Of a DNA stretch of 6,308 nucleotides, positions 222 to 6,165 are shown piece by piece. The translations under genes and the position numbers were made by a program. Origin of the DNA: a virus (taxonomy: Duplodnaviria; Heunggongvirae; Uroviricota; Caudoviricetes); IMG/VR virus record IMGVR_UViG_2671180405_000010. One strand, 5' to 3'. The notes under the pieces were generated by a model, which was not told the DNA's origin, did no database searches, and saw only the letters and a program-made list of their open reading frames with translations. Within the stretch, counting starts at the first letter, position 1. Every line of letters begins with the position of its first letter.

Positions 222-567
222 GAACTTGCAGAACGTCATGATCATAACTTCCATCCAAACCGCGACGGCGAATTGCTTCTCGTATTACCGGAAGCAGTTC
301 GCTGGAAATCTCGGTGCATATTTCACCTGATAATACGCTTGGCTCAAGTGAGAATATTGGTGAACTTACGGTCTTGGTCTCGACAGTTTCAGAGTCAGTG
401 CCAACATTATAAAGCTCAACGAAAGCGGTCTTGATTTTCCGGGCCAGATCTTTTGCTGGCTCGCTTGCAATATCTTTCCCGATTTCTCGCAGCACAGAAT
501 GCAATGTATGAGCTGCTGTTTTCTGTACATCAGACGGTAAATCTTTAAATTCCATCGTCAGCCTCAT
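190..567 (-). CDS. Hypothetical early-left protein (125 aa, or 121 aa from the ATG at 555)
   Basis: ORF from the six-frame track. Its start ATG (567..565) shares one base with the stop of the upstream ORF (TGATG). The in-frame ATG at 555..553 has GAGG 8 nt upstream, so it is the likelier start. Hydrophilic protein with no family I recognise. Confidence 0.55.
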   Translation of the reverse strand: MRLTMEFKDLPSDVQKTAAHTLHSVLREIGKDIASEPAKDLARKIKTAFVELYNVGTDSETVETKTVSSPIFSLEPSVLSGEICTEISSELLPVIREAIRRRGLDGSYDHDVLQVLRTMVTSLGI

Positions 568-773
568 CAGTCAGTGTTTCTGGCTAACCAGCAACGCGCG
601 CCAGATTCGGTTTTAAACGTTTTGCTTTTGGTATACGTCATGGCGGTAAACGTTCCATCCTGGTTAGGGAACACGCCGCACACCAGAGATTCGTTGTTGC
701 CAAGATCGATAGTATCCATGCTGACCTCATTTCCCCTTAACGCCGGGGTGGCGGAACAAAAAACCTGCTGCAT
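567..773 (-). CDS. Small hypothetical protein (68 aa from 773; 50 aa if started at the internal ATG 719..717)
   Basis: ORF is directly upstream of and coupled to the 190..567 ORF. The internal in-frame ATG at 719..717 has a GAGGT Shine-Dalgarno 4 nt upstream, whereas the ATG at 773 has no clear RBS. A plus-strand ORF (574..786) covers the same DNA, so the coding strand is not certain. Confidence 0.4.
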   Translation of the reverse strand: MQQVFCSATPALRGNEVSMDTIDLGNNESLVCGVFPNQDGTFTAMTYTKSKTFKTESGARCWLARNTD

Positions 774-899
774 AGTTAAAGATTGAACCCTGCCGTCATG
801 TTCTTACGCCTCGGGCTGGCTACTTAACCCCTGACCACTGTCTGGTAACTCGAAGTATTGCCCTGCATTCTGTGGGGCGGGGTGGGTTGACGCCTGAAA

Positions 900-945
900 C
901 AATAGCATCATTATTTTTTTTGATGTAAATAGCATCGCTATTGTT
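900..945. promoter_or_regulatory. Putative OL-like operator/promoter region: palindrome AATAGCATCGCTATT (930-944) plus a degenerate copy AATAGCATCATTATT (901-915)
   Basis: AATAGC / GCTATT inverted half-sites around a 3-bp centre. The same motif recurs in the repressor/cro intergenic region (2039-2053). Position is upstream of the leftward genes and just beyond the terminator of the repressor operon, as for lambda OL/pL. Confidence 0.35.
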
Positions 946-954
946 TTTTGTTGG

Positions 955-982
955 GGCAAGAAAAAACCACCCTAAGGTGGTT
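955..982 (-). terminator. Rho-independent terminator downstream of the toxin gene
   Basis: On the minus-strand transcript: 7-bp stem AACCACC / GGUGGUU with loop UUAG, followed by UUUUUUCUU. It lies 17 nt past the toxin stop codon (999-1001). Confidence 0.65.
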
Positions 983-998
983 CTGTCGGCGGGAATAA

Positions 999-1289
999 TT
1001 AACTGTTTTTGCCTGGATACTGTCTTCGAGAATGCACAATATTTACTACTTCTATGCTTGATGCTGTTACTCGGTAAAGGATGATGTAGTTAGGATGAGT
1101 TACAATTTCACGAAGACCAAGAACTCGCTCGCTTGGAGGATACAGGTAAGGATGCTCTGTGAGCGGCAAAACGGATGTTTCAATTCGAATTTTCATTCTG
1201 CGTGCTGCCGCGGGATTTTCTTTAGCTATGTAGGCTACGATCTGGCGCAAATCATCACGAGCAGATGGTAGCCATAAAACGGGTAACAT
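999..1289 (-). CDS. parE: Type II toxin, RelE/ParE superfamily (ParE2-like), 96 aa
   Basis: Translation (MLPVLWLPSARDDLRQIVAYI...EHPYLYPPSERVLGLREIVTHPNYIILYRV...) matches the ParE-family pattern as I recall it. Size is typical, and the start overlaps the antitoxin stop by one base (TAATG). Confidence 0.88.
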   Translation of the reverse strand: MLPVLWLPSARDDLRQIVAYIAKENPAAARRMKIRIETSVLPLTEHPYLYPPSERVLGLREIVTHPNYIILYRVTASSIEVVNIVHSRRQYPGKNS

Positions 1290-1483
1290 TATTCACCTCT
1301 GTGAGTTGCAGCAGCAATTTGGGCAATAATTTGTTCCATTTCCGCCATTACCTCATCATGCGGAATCGCCGGGCGGGGATCCGCGAGGCTTGCTGCTACT
1401 TTGGCCCGCAGCCATTCGTTGTAACTATTTTCTTGCTCAACTGTCTCAAATTCTGAAACCATTGGGGAAAGGACTGTACTCAT
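1289..1483 (-). CDS. paaA: Antitoxin of the ParE toxin (PaaA2-like), 64 aa
   Basis: Small acidic protein (..SPMVSEFETVEQENSYNEWLRAKVAASLADPRPAIPHDEV..) immediately upstream of and coupled to the toxin gene. AGGAG RBS 8 nt upstream of the ATG. Resembles the PaaA2 antitoxin of E. coli O157 prophages from memory. Confidence 0.82.
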   Translation of the reverse strand: MSTVLSPMVSEFETVEQENSYNEWLRAKVAASLADPRPAIPHDEVMAEMEQIIAQIAAATHRGE

Positions 1484-1502
1484 TTTACATATCTCCTCTG
1501 AT

Positions 1503-2003
1503 TTAGGCGCGACGGCCTTTTTGTGCAGCTAACCACCGCGCAACCGTACGATCCATTGATTCTTTTTTATCTTTCATCTCCTGAAGCATGTGTTCTTGAT
1601 CTTCTTTCGGAAAAGCTCTGAACGTATGGATTAAATCTCGTTCCATCGGCTCTACGGCAAACGGTAGTTCATCCTCTGTTTGTTCTGTGTCTGCTGGTAA
1701 TGCGACTATGTTATCTTGCTGTGGTTCTCGACAATACATCCTTGCAATTTGCAGCAAATCTACCATGTCTGGCCTGATTGACTCAGGGGGAACTTTCAGT
1801 AAGCCAGCAAACTTTAGAACAGCCTCAAGGTTTAGTGGGGTTTGACCATTTAGGTAGTGACTTACCGCCCCTTGTGTTGAAAACCCCATAATTTCCGCCG
1901 CACGTTCCTGAGTCAATCCCAACTGAGATTTCTTTGCCATCCAGATTTCTTTCAGTCTTCTGGCGGCGTTGAGGTCGGTGTCTGACAATGATTTTCTTTT
2001 CAT
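1503..2003 (-). CDS. paaR: cI-like prophage repressor with XRE-type HTH (PaaR2/RacR-like), regulator of the downstream TA pair
   Basis: HTH signature (LGLTQERAAEIMGFSTQGAVSHYLNG). Same strand as and 19 nt upstream of the antitoxin gene; divergent from the Cro-like gene. Start chosen at ATG 2003..2001 (MKRKSLSD...); the track ORF extends to a GTG at 2033 with no RBS. No obvious S24 peptidase Ser/Lys domain. Confidence 0.8.
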   Translation of the reverse strand: MKRKSLSDTDLNAARRLKEIWMAKKSQLGLTQERAAEIMGFSTQGAVSHYLNGQTPLNLEAVLKFAGLLKVPPESIRPDMVDLLQIARMYCREPQQDNIVALPADTEQTEDELPFAVEPMERDLIHTFRAFPKEDQEHMLQEMKDKKESMDRTVARWLAAQKGRRA

Positions 2004-2038
2004 ACATCCAATTCTAATAAGATTGCTAATCACTTTGA

Positions 2039-2078
2039 AATAGCATCACTATTTACTTTTAAAAATAACAGTGCTATT
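2039..2078. promoter_or_regulatory. Putative OR-like operators: AATAGCATCACTATT (2039-2053) and related AATAACAGTGCTATT (2064-2078), with divergent promoters
   Basis: Palindromic half-sites AATAG / CTATT in the 111-bp gap between the divergent repressor and Cro-like genes. Candidate rightward promoter: -35 TTTACT (2052-2057), 17-nt spacer, -10 TATTAA (2075-2080). Confidence 0.4.
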
Positions 2079-2114
2079 AATTATGCATTGGTAACACATC
2101 ACATAGGGCGGATT

Positions 2115-2378
2115 ATGAATCTTGGAGAATATTTGCATCATTTTCATATAACCCAGAGTTCATTTGCTGAGATTGTTGGCGCATCCCAAGGGATGGTCAG
2201 CCACGTTATAACGGGGCGTGCAAAACTTACAGGAGAAAAAATATTACGTTGGTGTGAAGCAACGGGATGGGTGGTGACCCCACATGAGATTGACAGTAAA
2301 ACCTACCCCAACCCAACTGACGGCTTGCCTGCTGAGTTTCAGGCTAACACACAACCATCGGCGGGGGTTGATTCATGA
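2115..2378 (+). CDS. ydaS: Cro-like HTH regulator (YdaS-like), about 87 aa
   Basis: Divergent from the repressor. HTH-like segment (SQSSFAEIVGASQGMVSHVITGRAKL). ATG at 2115 has AGGG 6 nt upstream; the track ORF starts at a TTG at 2088. Stop overlaps the next gene's start (ATGA). Confidence 0.75.
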   Translation: MNLGEYLHHFHITQSSFAEIVGASQGMVSHVITGRAKLTGEKILRWCEATGWVVTPHEIDSKTYPNPTDGLPAEFQANTQPSAGVDS

Positions 2379-2800
2379 AAATCAAGCATGAACACATCCG
2401 CATGGCGATGAAAGCCTGGGCGCATCCGGACGGTGAAAAAGTTCCGGCAGCTGAAATAACCAGGGTTTATTTCGAACTGGGAATGACGTTTCCGGTTCTG
2501 CATAACGACAGCAAGCACAACACGCTTTATCTCAACACCCAAAAGATTTTCCGTTGGCTGGATAAAGACACCCCTGACGCTGTTGAAAAAATTCAGGCGT
2601 TGTTACCTGCGATCGAAAGGGCAATGCCACCTCCGCTGGTGGCTCGAATGCGCAGCCACAGTTCAGCTTATTTTCGGGAACTGGTGGAGACGCATGAACG
2701 ACTGGTGAGAGACGCTGATGATTTTGTCGCAGTGGCAATCGCCGGTTTCAATCAGATGAACCGTGGTGGCCCGGCAGGAAATGCTGTGGCAGTACATTGA
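2375..2800 (+). CDS. ydaT: YdaT-like protein (cII-like regulator, formerly annotated as a toxin), 141 aa
   Basis: N-terminus MKIKHEHI... matches Rac prophage YdaT as I recall it. Position directly after the Cro-like gene with a 4-bp overlap. Confidence 0.8.
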   Translation: MKIKHEHIRMAMKAWAHPDGEKVPAAEITRVYFELGMTFPVLHNDSKHNTLYLNTQKIFRWLDKDTPDAVEKIQALLPAIERAMPPPLVARMRSHSSAYFRELVETHERLVRDADDFVAVAIAGFNQMNRGGPAGNAVAVH

Positions 2801-2871: not shown

Positions 2872-3936
2872 ATGGCTAACGCCTGGCTCAGATTATGGCA
2901 TGACATGCCAAATGACCCTAAGTGGCGAACAATTGCCAGGGTGTCAGGGCAGCCAATTGCAACAGTGATGGCAGTGTATATCCACCTCCTGGTGAGCGCG
3001 TCACGAAATGTCACGCGAGGTCACATTGATGTCACGACAGAAGATTTGGCAAGTGCGCTCGACGTGACAGAAGAGGTAATTGATTCAATTTTGCAGACGA
3101 TGCAGGGGCGGGTACTTGATGGTGATTTAATCACTGGATGGGAAAAACGCCAGGTGCTTAAAGAGGACAACGGCAATATTTCGCAAACCGCAAAATCTCC
3201 TGCAGAGCGCAAGAGGGCGCAGCGAGAGAGGGAAAGAAAGCGGGAACAAAATGGCGATTGTCACGGCGCGTCACGAAATGTCACGCACATGTCACGACGA
3301 GTCACGACAGATACAGATAAAGATACAGATAAAGAAGATCAAAACACTATGGTCCATGGCGTAAAAAACGCCACGAACCAGGCAGGGGATGTTCAGACCG
3401 TCAATCCTGGTCAGCCAGCAGGCTCGACACCGGAAGCCGATTCAGCGTATGCGCTGAAAGCCGATTCGGGCGCTGTGCAGCAGGTGATGACCGCAAGGCC
3501 GGAGCAATCACTCCAACTGCAGCAGCCTGAAGCCGATTCCGCCATTCAGCGGGAAGCCGATCGGGTAGCCCCGGAAAACACCGGGCAGCCTGTGGGACGA
3601 GTGGATTATCCGGATGTGTTCGAACAGGTCTGGCGGGAATACCCGTTGCGTGCCGGGGCAAACCCGAAGAAATCCGCATTCAGTGCCTGGAAGGCCAGAT
3701 TGCGCGAGGGGGTGCCACCAGAGACCATGCTGGATGGTGTGAGGCGTTACGCGAGATACCTGGCGGCGACCGGGAAAGCGGGAACGGAATTTGTTCAGCG
3801 AGCGACGACGTTTTTTGGGCCGGACCGGAATTTTGAAAACCCCTGGTTGCTCCCGGTAAGCGGCACGAACAACCAGCGTTGTGTGAATCATATTTCTGAA
3901 CCGGATACCGAAATTCCGCCGGGATTCAGGGGGTGA
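2872..3936 (+). CDS. ydaU: Phage replisome organizer / replication initiation protein (YdaU-like, lambda O analogue), about 354 aa
   Basis: ATG at 2872 with AAGAGG RBS 5 nt upstream. N-terminal region (WLRLWHDMPNDPKWRTIARVSG...) resembles phage replisome-organizer DNA-binding domains; C-terminal region (..VWREYPLRAGANPKKSAFSAWKARL..) resembles a conserved phage replication C-terminal domain. Contains internal DNA repeats and is followed 6 nt later by a DnaC-like gene. Confidence 0.85.
   Translation: MANAWLRLWHDMPNDPKWRTIARVSGQPIATVMAVYIHLLVSASRNVTRGHIDVTTEDLASALDVTEEVIDSILQTMQGRVLDGDLITGWEKRQVLKEDNGNISQTAKSPAERKRAQRERERKREQNGDCHGASRNVTHMSRRVTTDTDKDTDKEDQNTMVHGVKNATNQAGDVQTVNPGQPAGSTPEADSAYALKADSGAVQQVMTARPEQSLQLQQPEADSAIQREADRVAPENTGQPVGRVDYPDVFEQVWREYPLRAGANPKKSAFSAWKARLREGVPPETMLDGVRRYARYLAATGKAGTEFVQRATTFFGPDRNFENPWLLPVSGTNNQRCVNHISEPDTEIPPGFRG
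2996..3334. repeat. Iteron-like array inside the organizer gene: nine GTCACG/GTCACA hexamers in two clusters plus a tandem 12-bp A-rich repeat
   Basis: GTCACG at 3000, 3010, 3031, 3260, 3270, 3280, 3291, 3301 and GTCACA at 3020, spaced 10-11 bp. A perfect 21-bp direct repeat GCGCGTCACGAAATGTCACGC occurs at 2996-3016 and 3266-3286. ATACAGATAAAG is tandemly repeated at 3311-3334. Confidence 0.55.
3433..3563. repeat. Four copies of GAAGCCGAT(T)C within the organizer gene linker
   Basis: Copies at 3433-3443, 3457-3467, 3529-3539 and 3553-3563 (last copy imperfect). Spacings are 24, 72 and 24 bp, all in frame, encoding E/K-A-D-S/R peptide repeats. Confidence 0.4.
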
Positions 3937-5833: not shown

Positions 5834-6165
5834 NNNNNNNNNNNNNNNNNNNNNNNNNNNNNNNNNNNNNNNNNNNNNNNNNNNNNNNNNNNNNNNNNNN
5901 NNNNNNNNNNNNNNNNNNNNNNNNNNNNNNNNNNNNNNNNNNNNNNNNNNNNNNNNNNNNNNNNNNNNNNNNNNNNNNNNNNNNNNNNNNNNNNNNNNNN
6001 NNNNNNNNNNNNNNNNNNNNNNNNNNNNNNNNNNNNNNNNNNNNNNNNNNNNNNNNNNNNNNNNNNNNNNNNNNNNNNNNNNNNNNNNNNNNNNNNNNNN
6101 NNNNNNNNNNNNNNNNNNNNNNNNNNNNNNNNNNNNNNNNNNNNNNNNNNNNNNNNNNNNNNNNN
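5834..6165. other. Run of 332 N (assembly gap or masked sequence)
   Basis: Directly visible in the sequence. It lies inside an apparent CDS. Confidence 1.

Follow-up and report, generated by a model that had tools for sequence, protein, structure and literature searches.

AATAGC-type palindromes as probable operators of a lambdoid prophage immunity switch related to that of CP-933P

Background

The closest described counterpart of the locus considered here is the paaR2-paaA2-parE2/ydaS-ydaT region of CP-933P (Sp12) from Escherichia coli O157:H7, which possesses both right (OR) and left (OL) operators (Jurenas et al. 2021, PMC8630535; Prolic-Kalinsek et al. 2023, PMC9986795). Electrophoretic mobility shift assays and DNase I footprinting showed that PaaR2 and YdaS bind the paaR2-ydaS intergenic region, and gfp fusions that both proteins regulate the promoters PR, PRM and PL, with OL1-3 situated beyond the toxin-antitoxin genes (PMC8630535). 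The paaR2 mRNA, like that of lambda cI, is leaderless, the PaaA2-type antitoxins are devoid of a DNA-binding domain, and the repressor and the Cro-type protein share operators in CP-933P as they do in lambda and 434 (PMC8630535). A high-affinity operator of YdaT in CP-933P, termed OM, has also been published (PMC9986795). Here we analyze a related immunity region in a stretch of Caudoviricetes DNA (IMG/VR record IMGVR_UViG_2671180405_000010; the whole stretch of 6,308 nucleotides (nt) is hereafter the window), in which a 15-base-pair (bp) near-palindrome, AATAGC-N3-GCTATT, recurs on both sides of an operon that begins with the gene for a 166-amino-acid (aa) CI-like repressor.

We propose that five sites of this type serve this repressor and its Cro-like partner as operators in a lambdoid immunity switch of the prophage, and we place the probability of this reading at about 0.88. 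As far as its sequence can tell, the locus is a heteroimmune relative of the characterized PaaR2 switch of CP-933P, with a specificity that we did not find described. A full-text literature search returned no paper describing an AATAGC-type operator of a prophage repressor, and a literature search on paaR1 returned no sequence information.

Results and discussion

The palindrome and its setting in the window

The window is organized in the order ydfA-like small genes, left cluster of sites, terminator, ParE, PaaA2, CI-like repressor, right cluster of sites, Cro-like gene and YdaT. The two regulator genes and the putative operators are:

1503-2003, minus strand: immunity repressor gene, 166 aa; lambda-CI-like N-terminal helix-turn-helix (HTH) bearing an MKRKS arm, joined by a disordered linker to a DicA-like tail of two helices
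2115-2378, plus strand: Cro-like HTH gene, 87 aa; recognition helix SQGMVSH
901-915: OL1, degenerate site AATAGCATCATTATT; its promoter-proximal half contains the extended -10 of the predicted promoter pL
928-942: OL2, perfect palindrome AATAGCATCGCTATT; its edge overlaps the -35 of predicted pL
2016-2030: OR3 candidate, AATAAGATTGCTAAT, 3 mismatches; within the spacer of the predicted promoter pRM; tentative
2039-2053: OR2, AATAGCATCACTATT; adjoins the pRM -35 and overlaps the -35 of the predicted promoter pR; corresponds to the -50 position in relatives
2064-2078: OR1, AATAACAGTGCTATT; contains the extended -10 of predicted pR; corresponds to the -75 position in relatives

Four copies of the palindrome were found by a pattern search of the window. 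With at most 2 mismatches to AATAGCNNNGCTATT there were 4 matches against 0.17 expected, a number reached in none of 200 dinucleotide-preserving shuffles. A repeat finder independently returned the same four copies, at spacings of 27, 1111 and 25 bp, and recovered the left and right clusters as inverted copies of one another. When up to 3 mismatches are allowed, the single extra match in the window is the one at 2016-2030, in the repressor/cro intergenic region.

An earlier examination of the letters alone (the sequence-only reading) had already reported the shared palindrome in four copies, and our pattern search recovers the same sites. Its quoted sequences were all correct, as were its coordinates other than those of the second copy, which it placed at 930-944, 2 bp away from the true position at 928-942; its set of four also overlooked the likely third right-hand site at 2016-2030. 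It had further assigned one pair to the gap between the divergent repressor and Cro-like genes, and the HTH genes indeed flank 2004-2114. The other pair it had set past the operon terminator and ahead of the leftward small genes, which matches the observed succession of a hairpin at 963-984, the left cluster and the ydfA-like gene. Two hallmarks of lambdoid switches are found in this region: divergent HTH genes, one CI-like and one Cro-like, with several copies of one palindrome in the short gap between them, and a further occurrence of this palindrome at a second locus, ahead of leftward early genes.

Relationship to CP-933P

The architecture of the locus closely parallels that of CP-933P. 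In both, the repressor gene is followed on the left strand by genes for a PaaA2-type antitoxin and a ParE toxin, with Cro-like and YdaT genes diverging from it, and past the operon comes another operator cluster, together with a pL-like promoter. Both repressors are without a peptidase domain and have leaderless mRNAs, the latter being a prediction in the case of the window. The correspondence extends to the neighboring products, with ParE resembling ParE2 (E-value 6.7e-37) and YdaT resembling the structure 8bt1 (E-value 3.1e-70), and a perfect YdaT operator is present at the same junction.

In contrast, the operators differ, as most likely do the repressors. PaaR2 starts with MQKKE and has a mass of 15,081 Da with its tag, whereas the repressor of the window has 166 aa, starts with MKRKS and carries a lambda-CI-type domain. 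The published N-terminus and mass of PaaR2 do not suit the window repressor, which is most likely not a PaaR2 orthologue. The CP-933P operators are 18-bp palindromes with the consensus GTTTAGTAA, unlike the AATAGC-N3-GCTATT of the window; at OL they number 3, and at OR 4 inverted repeats or 3 operators are counted, as against 2 sites at OL and 2-3 at OR here. The half-site of GTTTAGTAA is absent from both clusters, and its sole match in the window with at most 1 mismatch, at 53-61, is at chance level.

The possibility that the locus is CP-933P paaR2-paaA2-parE2 itself was considered and rejected: its immunity region is matched best by two E. coli genomes with 99% identity and by some 70 with identities near 80% (72 genomes sharing the region in total), the repressor does not fit the published N-terminus and mass of PaaR2, and the CP-933P half-site is absent.

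Conservation of the sites in related loci

Loci with the same DNA-binding domain were drawn from E. coli genomes, assemblies, species-representative genomes and IMG/VR (63 loci). The species-representative sources were Citrobacter braakii, Yersinia frederiksenii, Rouxiella aceris and a Pseudohongiella metagenome-assembled genome; a search of the representative genome contigs with the whole repressor gave no match, and one with an alignment of the N-terminal domain gave 4 loci. The Pseudohongiella locus has no site within 2 mismatches. Specificity was evaluated on 31 representative loci with distinct repressor sequences, together spanning 220 kb and covering E. coli/Shigella, Citrobacter, Yersinia, Rouxiella and metagenomic viral contigs. 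Sites with 0-1 mismatch number 64 in these loci, and each of them lies either upstream of the repressor or in the downstream pair (0.55 expected), and two-mismatch sites elsewhere occur at chance level (10 versus 8.7 expected). A comparison with related prophages had been proposed in the sequence-only reading, and its outcome, with every one of these sites in the two operator places, accords with the assignment made there.

Relative to the repressor ATG, the starts of the motif fall at -75 and -50 in nearly all loci, and often also at -27, the position of OR3 in the window, where sites with 2 mismatches were seen in the Citrobacter, L069 and L075 loci. OR3 itself is a weak and tentative site, and the bases conserved at its outer positions overlap pRM elements. 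The downstream pair was recovered in 29 of the 31 representative loci, spaced 24-28 bp and situated past the end of the operon, anywhere from 2 bp to 2.2 kb after the repressor stop codon; it tracks the operon end irrespective of whether the cargo is PaaA2-ParE, HipA_2/DUF3037 or none. The OL1-OL2 spacing of the window is 27 bp versus the usual 25 bp in relatives. The HigBA loci L004 and L005 show one 2-mismatch site only at the downstream place.

Within the palindrome the outer AATA...TATT hardly changes from locus to locus, and the central three bases are free to vary, close relatives included. Such conservation of half-sites is the pattern that would be expected of a symmetric dimer reading two half-sites approximately one helical turn apart. 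Two distant relatives from IMG/VR, L075 and L076, whose N-terminal domain is about 40% identical and has the helix SQGAVSH, use AATACC-N3-GGTATT at the same positions; position 5 of the half-site may co-change with the residue before the conserved QG.

An exact search of IMG/VR for the paired pattern retrieved at least 80 loci; of the 80 listed, 50 adjoin an HTH pair of the QG.VSH type and several others adjoin related CI-like repressors, a rough gauge of specificity in that the 80 include a few AT-rich chance matches (G+C content 0.20-0.34) and truncated loci. The paired palindrome was also seen in other IMG/VR contigs, at 5979-6018 in L077 and 4035-4074 in L106 (G+C content 0.57) as well as in L100 and L115 (0.38-0.49), where it adjoins CI-like repressors with the helices TQGAFNQYL, TQGAFSAYL and TQGGVGHYL. 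The L077 repressor has 265 aa, and its nearest deposited relatives are CI proteins of Pseudomonas phages with about 43-46% identity.

Replacement of the sites along with the repressor

Loci that retain the same PaaA2-ParE-DUF1391 frame, a homologous pL leader and YdaT, but encode a 132-aa DicA-like repressor, served as controls. AATAGC sites are absent from these control loci; at both places, upstream and downstream, other palindromes occur instead (ACTTTTAAAGT or ACAGTAAATTACTGT). These palindromes were located at 2379-2500 and 3403-3680 in L156, and at 2392-2500 and 3416-3705 in L159, and define further immunity types. As the motif is replaced at both places where the repressor is a different one, operator and DNA-binding domain change together, and co-change of the two at both loci is what defines an immunity region. 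Operator specificity tracks the repressor's DNA-binding domain, with the TQGAVSHYLN domain and the motif found together across genera and cargo genes. The sites, their conservation and their link to this domain can be regarded as established, as can its fold, described below.

The repressor and the Cro-like protein

Residues 2-81 of the repressor show homology to the lambda CI N-terminal domain (E-value 2.9e-9). An AlphaFold model (mean predicted local distance difference test score 79) displays a five-helix N-terminal domain, a disordered linker at 92-112 and a two-helix tail. Foldseek matched the predicted N-terminal domain to lambda CI structures with a target template-modeling score of 0.81-0.93, a root-mean-square deviation (rmsd) of 1-2 Å and 37-40% identity. 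The similarity to lambda CI is strong for this domain only: HMMER matches stop at residue 81-90, and a weak tblastn alignment, at 31% identity, extends to residue 158 of the repressor. The C-terminal tail instead matches the C-terminus of DicA (E-value 7e-8). Pfam returned only HTH_3 and HTH_31 for the repressor and no S24 peptidase domain; hence, RecA-stimulated self-cleavage cannot be the route of induction. The sequence-only reading had recognized the gene as CI-like and had not remarked on this missing domain. A Shigella sonnei protein matches the repressor with 100% identity, and a search of deposited phages gave no close relative, the best match being lambda CI with 31% identity.

Beyond the homologous N-terminal domain (39% identity, rmsd about 2 Å), the repressor resembles lambda CI in its basic N-terminal arm and in acidic residues that align with E34 and D38 of the lambda protein. 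The likeness to lambda also includes the organization of the locus. The right-hand sites OR1 and OR2 lie 25 bp apart, the three sites of this cluster being spaced 25 and 23 bp, comparable with 24 and 23 bp in lambda; OR2 adjoins the pRM -35; the cI-type mRNA is predicted to be leaderless; and accessory genes are inserted between the repressor gene and OL, as are rexAB in lambda. Unlike its lambda counterpart, the window repressor has a short DicA-like helical tail in place of the S24/RecA-cleavage domain, its 15-bp operator has different half-sites, OL has no more than two detectable sites, the place of accessory genes is taken by a toxin-antitoxin pair, and the CII analogue is YdaT.

A third set of likenesses connects the locus to DicA/DicC of the Qin prophage. 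The match to the DicA C-terminus involves the last 55-60 residues of the repressor, the tails of the 132-aa HTH repressors from the same prophage frame are 60-79% identical to its tail, and the leftward genes are of the ydfA type, leading to dicB in relatives. The DNA-binding domain, however, is not DicA-like, and the loci with DicA-like repressors use other palindromes. Relatives of 240-255 aa (P0013-P0023; loci L006-L010 and L057-L060) combine a CI-like domain and a DicA-like HTH in tandem with the same C-terminal tail, and the 166-aa repressor looks like this longer form minus its second HTH. A second operator type for the second HTH of these relatives was sought with the L156 motif and none was found, the loci displaying only AATAGC-type sites.

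The repressor and the Cro-like protein are themselves similar (BLASTP, 38% identity over 48 aa, E-value 5e-7), with the helices TQGAVSH and SQGMVSH, and the Cro-like proteins of related loci conserve (S/T)QG(M/Y/A)(V/I)SH. In view of this similar recognition helix and its conservation in related loci, the two proteins probably share operators. One could instead suppose that the Cro-like protein, as an analogue of YdaS, is the sole or main protein to bind the sites, and that the 166-aa protein recognizes something else. The Cro-like protein does have an HTH with SQGMVSH and accompanies the motif in every locus, and its gene is transcribed out of the same intergenic region. We nonetheless judge this version very improbable on several grounds: 1) The repressor bears the same helix signature, and its TQGAVSHYLN helix is invariant in relatives with N-terminal domains down to about 58% identical. 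2) The distant loci L013, L075 and L076 have another Cro-like type, yet the motif stays with the CI-like domain. 3) A repeat search of the intergenic regions shows no alternative repeated motif for the repressor. 4) In lambda, 434 and CP-933P both proteins act on shared operators (PMC8630535).

Predicted promoters and the proposed switch

The promoters and the terminator predicted around the sites are:

2011-2039, minus strand: predicted pRM, with -35 TTCAAA at 2039..2034 and -10 TAGAAT at 2016..2011; from a promoter scan
2052-2080, plus strand: predicted pR, with -35 TTTACT at 2052-2057, a 17-nt spacer, and TGc plus -10 TATTAA at 2072-2080; read from the sequence
899-929, minus strand: predicted pL, with -35 TTTACA at 929..924, and TGc plus -10 TATTGT at 907..899; read from the sequence
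957-984, minus strand: intrinsic terminator of the repressor-PaaA2-ParE operon; stem AGAACCACC/GGTGGTTTT, then a T-run

The three predicted promoters would overlap the sites in a lambda-like arrangement. The pRM -10 ends 7 nt before the repressor ATG at 2003, a layout kept in 39 distinct upstream regions, and this conserved placement leads us to predict a leaderless repressor mRNA. At pR, the TTTAC/TTGAC and TGnTATT elements are conserved in relatives, and from their positions OR1 covers the -10 and OR2 touches the -35. The positions of the pL elements likewise bring this predicted promoter under OL2 and OL1; its layout is conserved in an alignment of the downstream regions, with a spacer of 19 nt here versus 17 nt in most relatives. 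The center of OR2 is at about -43 from the predicted pRM start, and lambda CI bound to OR2 at such a position contacts sigma-70. The terminator hairpin (963-984, minus strand; -15.1 kcal/mol, z -3.0) falls between the ParE stop codon (999) and the left cluster, and a hairpin with a T-run is present at the corresponding place in relatives. It was missed by a terminator scan, in which the stem extension consumed part of the T-run, and was confirmed by folding.

In the proposed immunity switch, repressor dimers would bind AATAGC-N3-GCTATT, with one outer half-site, AATA(G/A)C, read by each monomer and the 3 bp in between read by neither. Occupancy of OR1 and OR2 would cover the -10 and -35 of pR and turn off the Cro-like, YdaT and replication genes. 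From its position relative to the pRM start, OR2 would also be placed to stimulate the leaderless repressor-PaaA2-ParE transcript, and the weak OR3 inside pRM could mediate autorepression at high repressor level. On the other side, occupancy of OL2 and OL1 would cover pL and turn off ydfA and the downstream early-left genes. The Cro-like protein, with its nearly identical recognition helix, probably competes for the same sites, and the DicA-like tail probably mediates oligomerization, perhaps including OL-OR looping over about 1.1 kb. The sequence-only reading had likewise proposed that the repressor may control pR/pRM-like and pL-like promoters as in lambda. The comparative evidence supports this view; binding, promoter activity, pRM activation, cooperativity and looping are inferences.

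Several considerations count against this proposal. Binding and transcription at the sites are deduced from sequence, by which the roles of the repressor and the Cro-like protein are also inseparable. The promoters are predicted at the level of consensus matches, and of the three the scanning tool called pRM alone. OR3, with its 3 mismatches and with conserved bases that overlap pRM elements, is perhaps no true site. The 27-bp OL spacing results in the 19-nt pL spacer and in altered helical phasing, so that pL and cooperative binding may be impaired in this particular locus. Finally, oligomerization and looping are proposed by analogy with PaaR2 and CI only.

The proximity of promoter elements invites a further explanation, namely that the similarity of the clusters reflects duplicated promoter modules, made up of the -35 and -10 of pL and pR, with no dedicated protein-binding palindrome. 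This would suit the inverted relationship of the clusters and the -35 and extended -10 elements embedded in or beside the sites. There is little to recommend it, however, when the sites are inspected individually. They have two-fold symmetry with both halves conserved, though one half alone overlaps a promoter element; the half-sites are fixed while the central 3 bp vary between close relatives; OR3 and OR2 bear the motif where pR elements are absent; and the motif changes with the repressor DNA-binding domain between a flanking leader and terminator that remain homologous. That the sites might be autoregulatory operators bound by the PaaA2-ParE complex, as in classical type II toxin-antitoxin systems, is suggested by the location of the right cluster upstream of an operon containing such genes, but is contradicted by the comparative data and can be practically dismissed, as PaaA2-type antitoxins have no DNA-binding domain (PMC8630535) and Pfam finds the PaaA2 domain alone here, while the motif is present with HigBA, HipA_2/DUF3037 or no toxin-antitoxin genes and absent from a locus with PaaA2-ParE but another repressor.

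Variation between the left-hand sites

The T-run at 916-927, between OL1 and OL2, varies in length among near-identical loci. The resulting spacing of the OL sites is 24 bp in L021, 25 bp in L001, L016, L019 and L022, 27 bp in the window and in L014-type loci, and 28 bp in L020, which gives predicted pL spacers of 16-20 nt. This range of 24-28 bp was seen among near-identical Shigella/E. coli loci. The allele of the window, with its 19-nt spacer, looks suboptimal both for the promoter and for the helical phasing of the sites.

A composite idea arises from the presence of a lambda-CI-type domain on a DicA/PaaR-type tail and from the 240-255-aa relatives that keep the two HTH domains in tandem: by exchanging DNA-binding modules and keeping the oligomerization tail constant, the repressor family may alter its immunity, and the A/T run between OL1 and OL2 may act as a slipped-strand switch. 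We consider this combination unlikely. If such a switch existed, the A/T run would set pL strength and repressor cooperativity, and would thereby control the toxic early-left genes of a cryptic prophage.

Distribution and implications

The sequence-only reading had suggested counting the motif genome-wide. This count was carried out with the OR1-OR2 module, which BLAST detected in 71 of 5,426 complete E. coli genomes at a median of 2 places per genome, all intergenic; these 71 genomes are close in number to those holding the immunity region (72).

The present analysis supplies a consensus for the operators and a map of the predicted promoters of a fairly widespread prophage repressor family, whose only annotation is "helix-turn-helix domain-containing protein" and which is found in about 1.3% of complete E. 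coli genomes, in Shigella sonnei, and in prophages of Citrobacter, Yersinia and Rouxiella. The consensus allows immunity groups to be predicted from sequence, and the map would explain how transcription of the PaaA2-ParE toxin-antitoxin pair is coupled to a prophage switch. The locus furnishes a heteroimmune counterpart to the experimentally studied CP-933P system. No concept is altered by these results, which represent the lambda paradigm with a new specificity and are in this sense ordinary biology.

Neighboring genes and other features of the window

The genes and the additional operator that surround the switch are:

567-722, minus strand: ydfA-like DUF1391 gene, first of the predicted pL transcript (PF07151, E-value 1.3e-28)
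999-1289, minus strand: ParE-family toxin gene, 96 aa (PF05016, E-value 1.8e-17; ParE2 structure 5cw7_B, E-value 6.7e-37)
1289-1483, minus strand: PaaA2-type antitoxin gene, 64 aa (PF21217 PaaA2, E-value 3e-23)
2375-2800, plus strand: YdaT gene, CII analogue (3c4r, E-value 3.9e-79; 8bt1, E-value 3.1e-70)
2368-2385, at the cro-like/ydaT junction: perfect YdaT operator TTGATTCATGAAAATCAA (TTGATT-N6-AATCAA), which matches OM of CP-933P in motif and position (PMC9986795)

The repressor, PaaA2 and ParE genes overlap or abut, so that the PaaA2-type antitoxin and the ParE2-type toxin follow the regulator in one operon. On the leftward side, the 99%-identical E. coli locus L001 is annotated ydfA-ydfB-ydfC...dicB. 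A leader of about 180 nt separates predicted pL from ydfA (722-899, minus strand); it opens with CATCAACCCACCCCGCCCCACAGAA, which is conserved even in loci of other immunity types, and has no match in Rfam, in keeping with a scan of the entire window in which no Rfam family was matched. The last open reading frames of the window are broken by a run of N, masked or unassembled, at 5834-6165.

Replication genes lie beyond YdaT on the plus strand. Inside the replication-initiator gene, at 3000-3038, 3260-3308 and 3309-3332, there are clusters of GTCACG repeats, with four or five copies each, and a tandem of two AGATACAGATAA units. The clusters and the tandem look like origin iterons within an O-like gene.

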